Shown here: one piece after another, positions 1-2,142 of the stretch
Layout of the letters: every line of letters starts with the position of its first letter
How positions within the stretch are numbered: the first letter of the stretch is position 1
Virus record (IMG/VR): IMGVR_UViG_3300037234_000386
Location: 8,324 to 72,323 of that record
Source: a virus
DNA: 64,000 nucleotides
Strand: one strand, 5' to 3'
Notes under the pieces: model-generated
Seen by the model: only the letters and a program-made list of their open reading frames with translations
Databases searched by the model: none
Told to the model about the DNA's origin: nothing
Translations under genes and position numbers: made by a program

Positions 1-2
1 GG

Positions 3-368
3 GTGAAAATAAATGAAAAGTGGGAACCCGCATTATGGAATAGTAAAAAGCAGTGGATATTGATCGGATTTGAAAAACCTGCTTTAGTGGATGAGGTTGG
101 TGAACTTATTATGCGTGATGGCAAAAAGCCAACAAGCGAGCCTGATACTCAGGCATTGCCTTTAAATGTTGTTAGCTTTAACGAAGCCTGTGAATGTGAT
201 AACACCGAAGTTTGCGGTATATGCTTTCGTAAAAAAGGATATGAAATAATTGATAACGAACTAAAATTCACAGGCGTAGAGGAGGTTTGCGATAAATGCG
301 AAGAACCATTTAGCTACAAGGGAGAATATAGGAACATTTGCTTTAAATGCGAAGATGATTTTATTTAG
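3..368 (+). CDS. Cassette-borne hypothetical protein with C-terminal Cys-rich (Zn-binding) motifs; probably 5'-truncated by the window edge
   Basis: ORF; CEC, CGIC, CDKC and CFKC motifs; stop lies just before the AAC core at 382-384. Confidence 0.6.
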   Translation: MKINEKWEPALWNSKKQWILIGFEKPALVDEVGELIMRDGKKPTSEPDTQALPLNVVSFNEACECDNTEVCGICFRKKGYEIIDNELKFTGVEEVCDKCEEPFSYKGEYRNICFKCEDDFI

Positions 369-455
369 CAAACTTAAAGCTAACGGAAATAATAAGAAGC
401 GTACGGAATAACCTGAGAATTTAAAACGAGTAATAATTTAAAATAAAAAAAAGCG

Positions 456-755
456 ATGGAAAATTTTGGAAAATTTATGACACTAGTAATGGCTATGATT
501 ATTAGCCCGATTGTAAGCGGTTTTGTAACTATGAAGTTATGGTTTTGGTTTATGGTTCCAATATTTGGAATGAACCCACTTAGATTAGTTGAAGCGATTG
601 GATTAATGTTTTTAATTAATTACCTGAAGTTTAGAAAAACAAAGCCTACGGATAAGGATAAGTTTTGGCTTGAATTTACAGAAAGTATAATTACTGTGAT
701 ACTTATAGCTGCTGTGGCTTTGTTTAGCGGTTGGATAGTACAGAAGTTTATGTAA
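456..755 (+). CDS. Cassette-borne small membrane protein (about 3 TM segments)
   Basis: Hydrophobic stretches; A-rich leader before ATG. Confidence 0.75.
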   Translation: MENFGKFMTLVMAMIISPIVSGFVTMKLWFWFMVPIFGMNPLRLVEAIGLMFLINYLKFRKTKPTDKDKFWLEFTESIITVILIAAVALFSGWIVQKFM

Positions 756-984
756 AGTGTGCGTAGGCTTTTTATTTTAAATTGCCTCAGTTTACACGAA
801 TGAAGCCACGAGCTACGGCACTAAGTATGCTTTTTATTTAGTGTTGTACGCTGTGCTTTTTATAAGATGCTGAGAGGGTAATTATTAAGAACCAATAAAA
901 ACCTTTTTAGCATTGCGTACAACGTGGATGGGCTATGAGTAGTATTTTTAACGAATTTGAAACACTAAACTAAAATTATACATA

Positions 985-1269
985 ATGATAACAGATGCTA
1001 AGATAAAACAAGGAATGGAGAAAGCTTATAAAAAAGCAGGACATAATACCTACTTCAGCAATGGTTTTGAAGCGGGGGTAAGGTTTGCACTAGAACAAGT
1101 TAAAAATATTACTTATGAGCCTGTGTTAAGCGTTGTTGATTCAGATGCAAAAGAAGAGAAAGAAAAAATAATAACAGCAATACTTTATGAGCACATGGAT
1201 CATCACAGCGGAAAAGTTTCAGAATTAGATTTTGATGCAGTTGTTGCAGACGTAATTAAACATACGTAA
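985..1269 (+). CDS. Cassette-borne hypothetical protein
   Basis: ORF with Bacteroidota-type AT-rich leader; FEAGVRFA motif common in small phage proteins. Confidence 0.7.
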   Translation: MITDAKIKQGMEKAYKKAGHNTYFSNGFEAGVRFALEQVKNITYEPVLSVVDSDAKEEKEKIITAILYEHMDHHSGKVSELDFDAVVADVIKHT

Positions 1270-1329
1270 TAACGCTTAACATATATTATCCTTAATGTAG
1301 TTAATCAATTGACACAAAAATACTTAAAA

Positions 1330-2142
1330 ATGGAATTGACAGAGTTATTAAAAAAATATGACAACAACTTAAACCTTAAATATGATTCTAAAAATACTAA
1401 AGATGGTTATAGGAATGCGATCAATAGATATATAAAGGACAATGATAGGGTTTACAGAATGTCTACCGACAATATAAAGCAATATATGTCTAATTTTAGA
1501 AAAATATACTCTAACTCTTATTTTAATATTATGGGATCATCATTAATTTTACTTTACCGAGATGTGTTAAATCAACCATTAAAAATGAAGTGGTTTAAGT
1601 CTATAAAAACAGAACGAAAGTTTCATCGGATAATAACTAATGATGAATTTATTCAGATGATGAAAAATGCTAAAAATTTAAAACATAAGGTGATTTTAAT
1701 AATACTTTATTCGACAGGAATAAGAGAAACTGAGTTAATAAACATTAAACTCTCAGATATTGATTTTAACTCTAAGAGAATTTTTATCAAATCGTTAAAG
1801 AATGGTAAAAACAGATATTCTCCACTAAAAGAATTAACTGAGCGTTACATTAAAGCATATATCAGAGGATGGAGCCCTAAAGAGTATCTTTTGAATGGTC
1901 AAAATACATTAAAATACTCCACAAGCAGTGTATTTCAAATGATAAAAAAGGTTTCTGAAGGTAAAGTTAATCCTCACTTATTTCGTCATACTTTCGCCAC
2001 ACTTATGATTGAACATGAAGATGTGTTTTACACACAAGAATTATTAGGGCAAAGAAATCTTAATAGTACATTACATTACAATCACATTTCTCAAGAAAGA
2101 TTAATTAAATCATTTAATCCACTAGACAAAATAGCAAGTTAA
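1330..2142 (+). CDS. Tyrosine recombinase/integrase (IntI/Xer-like; SAM-like N-terminal domain plus catalytic domain)
   Basis: LYSTGIR, KNGKNR, HLFRHTFAT, LLGQ (normally LGH) and terminal Tyr in TLHYNH; alternative TTG start at 1309. Confidence 0.92.
   Translation: MELTELLKKYDNNLNLKYDSKNTKDGYRNAINRYIKDNDRVYRMSTDNIKQYMSNFRKIYSNSYFNIMGSSLILLYRDVLNQPLKMKWFKSIKTERKFHRIITNDEFIQMMKNAKNLKHKVILIILYSTGIRETELINIKLSDIDFNSKRIFIKSLKNGKNRYSPLKELTERYIKAYIRGWSPKEYLLNGQNTLKYSTSSVFQMIKKVSEGKVNPHLFRHTFATLMIEHEDVFYTQELLGQRNLNSTLHYNHISQERLIKSFNPLDKIAS

Follow-up and report, generated by a model that had tools for sequence, protein, structure and literature searches.

The first 2,142 nucleotides (nt) of a 64,000-nt stretch of viral DNA (IMG/VR record IMGVR_UViG_3300037234_000386, positions 8324–72323, called here the window) very likely form the recombinase-side end of an integron-like platform of gene cassettes in a phage of ~72 kb. 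The record was a single contig of 72,323 bp, whose positions are given below as genome positions, and its ends overlapped by 127 bp, giving a circular phage assembly of ~72.2 kb. An array of ~5.3 kb (genome 4308–9603), in which about a dozen small accessory genes were carried as cassettes, lay between a primase/helicase gene and the gene for a Xer-like tyrosine recombinase. The evidence lay in the architecture of this array, the covariation of its paired boxes, strand-specific G·T wobbles at fixed positions, a constant position of the recombinase and variants between relatives that differed by whole cassettes at the trinucleotide AAC. Recombination on folded single-stranded DNA is best known from integrons, where it is thought to depend on a domain unique to the integron integrase IntI.

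Inverted repeats were searched for with a finder blind to strand and mismatch type, which accepted 9 exact matches or at least 12/14 matches with arms 20–700 nt apart, and repeats were chained when the next arm began −2 to +12 nt after the previous one. Lone inverted repeats of 9–11 nt occurred at chance level in this DNA of 31–37% G+C (34 pairs in 2.6 kb). The non-random feature was abutment, each 3′ arm adjoining the next 5′ arm at a distance of 3–11 nt. The chain at window 171–1280 was the only one with five links in the whole window; five links were obtained in 0/1000 dinucleotide shuffles of window 1–1400 and four links in 2/1000, and this segment held 20 repeat pairs vs 8.4 ± 3.2 in the shuffles. 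All five pairs described from the letters of the window alone (the sequence-only reading) were present, the three GTT/AAC pairs being exact over 11, 9 and 10 nt, and the predicted further units were found upstream. Leftward of the window the series of pairs continued, and the strict chain had 11 links (genome 7099–9606). A twelfth, wobble-containing link was located at genome 6924–6942/7079–7097, and a structured annotation followed more units back to an AAC at genome 4308–4310, directly after the primase/helicase gene (genome 2228–4255). Shuffles of genome 4000–9800 (n = 400) gave at most 5 links (2/400) vs 11 observed.

The structured finder, run with relaxed thresholds for the outer (R) and inner (L) stems described below, gave 4–11 links in 30 shuffles and was used for annotation only, not for statistics. 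The chain finder saturated in DNA of ~20% G+C, and a wobble-aware finder that chained everything at a low threshold was not used. A consensus scan of viral contigs for the end of an L stem, a spacer and GTT gave at least 115 single matches, a number that says nothing on prevalence; 80 of these loci were examined and lay mostly in DNA of ~20% G+C, where the chain finder saturates. A separate abutting-repeat chain of 4 links, the second longest in the window, was seen at window 16778–17881 and was within the range of the shuffles (2/1000 per 1.4 kb).

On the + strand each cassette had the order C, a spacer of ~5 nt, box L′′, loop 1, box L′, a spacer of 1–3 nt, the GTT box R′, loop 2 and box R′′ ending in AA, with R′ pairing with R′′ and L′′ with L′. 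In 38 R stems, positions 1–3 were GTT, position 4 was mostly A, and positions 5–10 were free in sequence yet paired. Position 11 was G in the 5′ arm of 32/38 stems, opposite a T found in 37/38 3′ arms, so that G stood over T in 32/38. The spacer after AAC was mostly 5 nt, beginning with GG (26/42) or GT (12/42), and the spacer before GTT was mostly 2–3 nt. The R boxes were 9–21 nt long and cassette-specific: of 9 variable positions, 7.3 were paired between the GTT and AAC boxes of one cassette, 3.0 between a GTT box and the neighbouring cassette's AAC box and 2.9 in random box pairs. The full structure would form in two ways only, in the array as successive hairpins and in an excised circle as a single rod. 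The L loops measured 72–569 nt in this genome, and either type of loop could contain a gene.

The L stems were also asymmetric between strands. Exactly two G·T pairs were present in 30/44 of them, 32/39 spacings between such pairs were 5 nt, and these fixed pairs sat 12–13 and 17–18 nt from AAC. Because the annotation behind such positional counts rewards G·T pairs, the strand test was repeated with the neutral finder. Stems in chains (n = 69) then contained 60 G·T/T·G vs 5 A·C/C·A mismatches, and isolated repeats of the same loci (n = 703) contained 125 vs 87. The bias of 60 to 5 indicated that the + (coding) strand is the strand that folds well, in agreement with the sequence-only reading. 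That reading had also described the mismatches as G·T wobbles plus one extrahelical G. The wobbles proved to be general, whereas the extrahelical base occurred in one stem of the window only. The two L pairs claimed in the window were confirmed, one with 12/14 matches and the other with two G·T pairs and a bulged G.

To count recombination joints, pairs of genomes at least 99% identical were compared (metagenomic phages L006 and L007; cultured Polaribacter phages Freya_1, Freya_6, Freya_10 and Danklef_1). Among 11 ends of homology at this identity, 10 fell at AAC, one at GTT and none elsewhere. L006 and L007 were 99.4–100% identical outside the array. L007 lacked positions 2463–9493 of L006 (7,031 bp), a segment bounded by two AAC sites of R boxes, and carried at 7422–9951 other cassettes (2,530 bp) between the final AAC of a cassette and a conserved site before the recombinase gene (the attI-like site); in L006 the same cassette adjoined the attI-like site directly. 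Freya_10 carried an insert of 4,941 bp that separated the attI-like site from what is the last AAC in Freya_1; this insert made up all but 1 bp of the 4,942-bp difference in length between the two genomes. Freya_6 and Freya_10 diverged right after an AAC and rejoined at the last AAC. Danklef_1 and Freya_10 had in common a 1,169-bp block (99.6% identity) with AAC at both ends, and their 100% identical flank (Danklef_1 position 1359) stopped right after the GTT of the first R box. New cassettes sat next to the recombinase.

In more diverged pairs, four ends lay at or near AAC (L005/L007 twice, L005/L006 and Danklef_1/Freya_10), one at GTTA (L005/L006) and five inside loops; the latter may be edges of divergence or replacements of genes within cassettes. 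At L005 1092–1524 vs L006 458–884, an open reading frame (ORF) read through a GTT(A) joint, its N-terminal part being common to both phages and its C-terminal module different. The relatives therefore bore out the proposal that cassettes are gained and lost at AAC (L006/L007; Freya_1, Freya_6 and Freya_10; Danklef_1). Of the crossover proposed at AA↓C, the trinucleotide stood; AA↓C could not be separated from A↓AC or AAC↓ because all partners carry AAC, and two of the 16 site-located ends were at GTT.

The same architecture recurred beside related recombinases. Strict chains of 4–8 links were present upstream of the recombinase in 5/8 viral loci. R and L stems alternated without a break in L006 (19 R and 18 L stems, 393–9951, L loops of 9–940 nt) and in L005 (13 R and 12 L stems, 853–6949), both arrays ending 50 nt from the start of the recombinase gene. 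The chain was unclear in four loci (L002, L003, L008 and L009), and in 4/4 of these a terminal R stem ending at AAC near −50 was present; loops in L002 reached 1231 nt. An AAC stood ~49–50 nt before the ATG in 16/16 loci with enough upstream DNA, and the distance in the window was 49 nt, where ~50 bp had been claimed. To the right of this AAC the layout was conserved, and to its left the sequences were unrelated between loci. The extra cassettes of L007 and Freya_10 were placed exactly at this attI-like site, whose sequence is, to our knowledge, unrelated to known attI sites. The Freya integrase was only 28% identical to the recombinase of the window, and its locus had the same site grammar and spacing.

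Two Polaribacter phages were of note. In Danklef_1 (7361–7492) the annotated integrase was a remnant of only 132 nt and the upstream cassette array persisted, resembling an attC cluster (CALIN). In P12002L (NC_028924) a short GTT…AAC/L chain at 40046–40939 had its wobbles on the − strand, again the coding one; a recombinase was not annotated, and the chain was away from the methyltransferase genes at 29–32 kb.

The recombinase gene began at an ATG, the start found in all homologues, and contained the Pfam domains Phage_integrase and Phage_int_SAM_4. Among NCBIfam models, XerA was the best match (135.6 bits vs a cut-off of 220), and XerC (95.1 vs 335), XerD (88.2 vs 330) and the integron-integrase models TIGR02249 (96.4 vs 265, in two stretches) and NF011946 (49.5 vs 435) also remained below their cut-offs. 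A profile of the recombinase clade retrieved XerA structures first from the PDB (4a8e, E = 1e-32; 5hxy, E = 5e-28) and aligned to IntI4 (2a3v) over residues 14–176 only. Alignment with an IntI-labelled protein left a gap of ~45 residues where the IntI-specific segment lies. Judged by its sequence, the recombinase is not an integron integrase, since it scores below the family cut-offs and is devoid of the IntI insertion. With this qualification, the integron-like interpretation of the sequence-only reading was supported. The catalytic R, K, HxxR and Y were invariant or nearly so in the clade.

A protein search gave a tight clade of 33 proteins (49–100% identity, ~270 amino acids), all from phages and metagenomes, after which identity fell to 31%. 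Viral contigs yielded no relative when scanned with peptide patterns drawn from this protein alone; scans with patterns from the clade alignment then found eight viral loci with recombinases 42–57% identical and 27 metagenome loci, 11 of which were clade members, mostly of 1–3 kb. Comparison of window 1–6000 with GenBank phages by blastn gave no match. No close homologue was detected in one genome per each of 185,579 prokaryote species (best 37%), and there was thus no sign of prophage integration by this clade. A recombinase at the 37% level was encoded at 8001–8696 of a 2.7-Mb contig of a Bacteroidales metagenome-assembled genome. Five kb downstream of it, at 13947–16303, was an array with identical L boxes, cassette-specific R boxes and wobbles on the − strand, perhaps a version of the system with homogeneous sites that resides in a chromosome or prophage.

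The features of the window are listed in Table 1.

Table 1. Array and recombinase features at the left end of the window (window positions)
Feature	Position	Strand	Remarks
Cassette ORF, 3′ part (132 amino acids)	1..368	+	Start at genome 8293, 31 nt before the window; translated through the L′-spacer-GTT junction
L′ arm	153..167	+	Partner at genome 8226–8240, upstream of the window; two mismatches, both G·T
R′ (GTT) box, 5′ arm of R stem	171..181	+	11 nt exact with 374–384
R′′ box, AAC at 382–384	374..384	+	3′ arm of R stem; probable cassette boundary, by analogy with joints in relatives
L′′ arm	391..404	+	6 nt after AAC
Cassette ORF, 99 amino acids, membrane protein, phrog_2169	456..755	+	Wholly within the 420-nt L loop
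L′ arm	825..838	+	Pairs with 391–404, 12/14; both mismatches G·T
R′ (GTT) box	843..857	+	843–851/915–923, 9 nt exact; 15 nt with 2 mismatches
R′′ box, AAC at 921–923	909..923	+	Loop of 51 nt
L′′ arm	931..952	+	Pairs with 1099–1121
Cassette ORF, 94 amino acids, no family match	985..1269	+	Begins within the L loop, crosses L′ and R′, ends at the R′′ box
L′ arm	1099..1121	+	Two G·T pairs with 931–952; bulged G at 1117 in the 3′ arm
R′ (GTT) box, recombinase-proximal cassette	1125..1138	+	Genome 9448–9461; 1125–1134/1271–1280, 10 nt exact
Last R′′ box, AAC at 1278–1280	1267..1280	+	End of the array
attI-like site	1281..1329	+	49 nt from last AAC to recombinase ATG; layout kept in 16/16 related loci
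Xer-like tyrosine recombinase, 270 amino acids	1330..2142	+	ATG at 1330; listed ORF begins at TTG 1309

The three cassettes delimited by the sequence-only reading (923–1279, 384–922 and <1–383) each held one intact ORF on the + strand, codirectional with the recombinase gene and on the folding strand, as it had stated. Over the whole array, 12/12 ATG-initiated ORFs of at least 60 amino acids were on this strand and pointed toward the recombinase. Three ORFs (genome 6972–7262, 8293–8691 and 9308–9592) were translated through the L′-spacer-GTT segment and stopped at the next AAC box. When 13 ORFs were scanned for families, 10 had no significant match; the others matched DUF7352/phrog_3848, phrog_2169 (membrane protein) and, weakly and below cut-offs, a zinc ribbon.

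Some observations concerned the inside of cassettes. A perfect, AT-only inverted repeat of 15 nt (window 435–449/769–783) bracketed the membrane-protein ORF within its L loop. A unit of a gene plus flanks at genome 4789–5171 was 79% identical to L009 7255–7640, the surrounding cassette frame not being common to the two. The only public sequencing run found with this DNA, probably from the source sample, was available as contigs only; on genome 4200–9800 these showed breaks, branch points and two variant joints within the array, one linking 4814 with 5149 and one linking 7933 with 8025 across 22 other letters. The first of these omitted exactly the ORF at 4812–5144 (depth 4.6 vs 10.6). The bracketed gene, the L009 match and the skipped ORF suggest that genes may also be replaced within cassettes, at a second, nested level.

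Directly 3′ of the recombinase gene, window 2145–5012 encoded a GroES-like co-chaperonin, a RecE/YqaJ-type exonuclease and a RusA resolvase. With the primase/helicase gene 5′ and the exonuclease and resolvase genes 3′, the array sits between replication and recombination genes, where single-stranded DNA is made.

In the mechanism that we propose, single-stranded DNA of the array would form hairpins that abut one another in series, and an excised circle would form one rod in which AAC marks the meeting point of the R and L stems. The recombinase would bind the stems and cut in or at AAC, and cassettes would be excised by AAC × AAC exchange. The target of insertion would be the conserved duplex site that begins directly behind the last AAC and 49 nt ahead of the start codon of the recombinase gene, and replication would resolve the product, as in integrons. 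A single-stranded, replicative mechanism is suggested by the covariation, the strand-specific wobbles and the analogy to integrons, and we consider it probable, with somewhat less confidence than the presence of the platform itself. The single-stranded substrate, the circular intermediates, the exact cut and the catalysis by this enzyme, which has Gln at its second His position, are presumed.

Several points weighed against this interpretation. Parts of the array upstream of about genome 7000 were irregular, and at genome 6155–6160 an AAC was followed directly by a GTT box without an L stem. In the linear array, a site of the classical attC type (AAC box of one cassette, L stem, GTT box of the next) would have an R stem of only ~3 bp, so that excision would need a synapse unlike that of integrons. 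Two ends of homology lay at GTT and not at AAC. On genome 4200–9800, the contigs of the public run contained no circle junction, excision product or AAC-to-AAC joint, although the run decides nothing on circles because contigs cannot show rare ones. The IntI-specific insertion contacts extrahelical bases of folded attC, and a Xer-like enzyme that by its sequence has no such insertion offers no explanation of how a folded site would be read. The catalytic motif was R..K..HxxR..Q..Y, with Gln in this phage and its closest homologue at a position that is His in 28/30 aligned proteins, and the copy in this phage may be weakened by this change. The wobbles on the coding strand, finally, fit an RNA structure equally well.

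The last point bears on the improbable explanation that the stems are RNA structures of an early polycistronic transcript, serving processing, stability or translational control, and that cassette differences arose by other means, such as homologous exchange between similar L boxes. All 12 ORFs are on the + strand, the wobbles are G·U-compatible there and several stems lie within coding sequence, as such structures would allow. It leaves unexplained that 10 of 11 joints between near-identical genomes fall exactly at the 3′ base of an R stem, that new cassettes stand beside the recombinase at a fixed 49–50 nt, and that the boxes at which the joints fall are cassette-specific; no Rfam family was found at gathering score in genome 4200–9800. 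RNA folding could coexist with recombination of the DNA. A conventional double-stranded site-specific system (Xer/dif-like, shufflon-like or phage attP), with a duplex core around AAC and incidental inverted repeats, would suit the closest solved relatives, the XerA enzymes that act on duplex dif sites, and the recombinase-proximal site, which has no partner arm and is presumably duplex. In the available part of Bartlau et al. 2021 (PMC8776804), the Freya homologue is moreover annotated as an integrase, possibly indicating a temperate lifestyle. Such a core would need neither complementarity of GTT and AAC boxes across a cassette, yet this is kept in 38 different sequences, nor G·T mismatches of one strand at fixed positions, and a close homologue of the enzyme (above 37%) was absent from the prokaryote genomes surveyed. 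We regard this explanation as distinctly improbable.

It is very improbable that a classical integron or attC cluster was acquired from a bacterium. The GTT/AAC cores, the R and L boxes, the insertion site beside the recombinase and the partial match to the NCBIfam integron-integrase model would fit, and classical parts have been reported in phages, a Polaribacter phage included, in the accessible part of Qi et al. 2023 (PMC9892861). A classical integron was excluded because of the enzyme, with its low scores against both integron-integrase models and the ~45 absent IntI-specific residues. The long, cassette-specific R boxes, the loops of up to 569 nt here and 1231 nt in L002, the position of the genes on the folding strand and the restriction of the recombinase clade to phages and metagenomes pointed the same way. 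A chance arrangement of short inverted repeats in AT-rich DNA has next to no probability. Single repeats are indeed common, the chain finder saturates at ~20% G+C and the relaxed finder reaches 11 links in shuffles, but composition-preserving shuffles failed to give the chain, and the same architecture, with wobbles of one strand at fixed positions, stood beside homologous recombinases in unrelated sequences. The explanation by chance was therefore rejected.

Among known systems, the platform is closest in layout to integrons, especially sedentary chromosomal ones. Classical attC sites can be detected with a covariance model and measure ~57–141 nt, with R′′/R′ cores of 7 nt, L′′/L′ boxes and extrahelical bases; the crossover is at G↓TT (AA↓C on the bottom strand), attI adjoins the integrase gene, and a promoter at the integrase/attI end drives the cassette genes, which lie on the strand that is not the folding one. 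The phage array resembles this in having a tyrosine recombinase gene beside a fixed insertion site and then small single-gene cassettes, imperfectly palindromic sites whose outer AAC/GTT core (R) encloses an L pair, and cassettes whose first core is complementary to the inverse core that closes them. The strand that folds better is the one that is sense for the recombinase gene, new cassettes adjoin the recombinase, and whole cassettes are gained or lost with 10/11 ends at an AAC that closes an R stem. It differs in its host, a virus, and in its enzyme, XerA-like with 270 residues and no IntI insertion. The R boxes of 9–21 nt are cassette-specific without pairing to neighbouring cassettes, the recurrent asymmetry is given by fixed G·T wobbles and an extrahelical base is found in one stem of the window, the loops hold genes and ORFs cross L′-GTT, and the cassette genes are on the folding strand, running toward the recombinase.

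Other systems share fewer features. By sequence, the phage enzyme is most closely related to Xer recombinases (archaeal XerA, bacterial XerC/D), which act on one duplex dif site to resolve dimers; the phage enzyme, below the XerA, XerC and XerD equivalog cut-offs (220 for XerA), lies beside arrays of cassette-specific hairpins and not beside a dif site. In hyperplastic regions of T4-type phages, promoter/stem-loop mobile regulatory cassettes are flanked by shared repeats that promote homologous exchange, no dedicated recombinase being known for them. Both there and here, small accessory genes flanked by structured elements are shuffled between relatives; in the phage array, unlike the T4-type cassettes, every cassette has R boxes of its own and a single trinucleotide is the place of the joints. 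Qi et al. 2023 (PMC9892861) also dealt with phage genomes that contain cassette-type recombination sites; in the part of the paper available, IntegronFinder and HattCI were used to find classical integron parts in 21 phages, including Polaribacter phage P12002L, with classical IntI/attC tested with IntI1. The methyltransferase genes of P12002L (29–32 kb) are placed in its cluster there, and the phage-specific recombinase and the sites described here do not appear in that part of the paper.

A finer-grained version, that of a second, viral integron built on a Xer-type enzyme, is a tentative idea, and we think it rather unlikely. In it each hairpin (R or L), and not only each cassette, would be an exchangeable module. 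ORFs pass through L′-GTT in a recurrent frame, so that proteins would exchange their C-terminal modules when recombination occasionally took place on the GTT side. Replacement of the gene within a loop would be a third, nested level, and the fixed G·T wobbles, about one helical turn on either side of AAC, would replace extrahelical bases as the signal for strand selection, to be read by an enzyme without the IntI domain.

No description of this system was found in the literature searched, in which coverage of subscription journals was sparse. Bartlau et al. 2021 (PMC8776804) give, in the part available, Freya genomes of 44.0–48.9 kb with one integrase, and a term search of the main text for cassette, inverted repeat, variable region and indel gave no occurrence. 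Cultured Polaribacter phages from one isolation campaign differ by up to 4.9 kb of cassettes at the attI-like site, and the system is directly testable in them. Arrays of this kind are a likely cause of the breaks that metagenome assemblies show in these regions, most contigs with homologues being 1–3 kb long. If the interpretation as an integron-like platform is true, phage accessory genes, probably for host takeover or anti-defence, would have a dedicated device for capture and shuffling, which would explain part of the mosaicism of early regions. A phage-borne platform using the logic of integrons with a plain Xer-like enzyme would then mean that this logic arose more than once or predates IntI.

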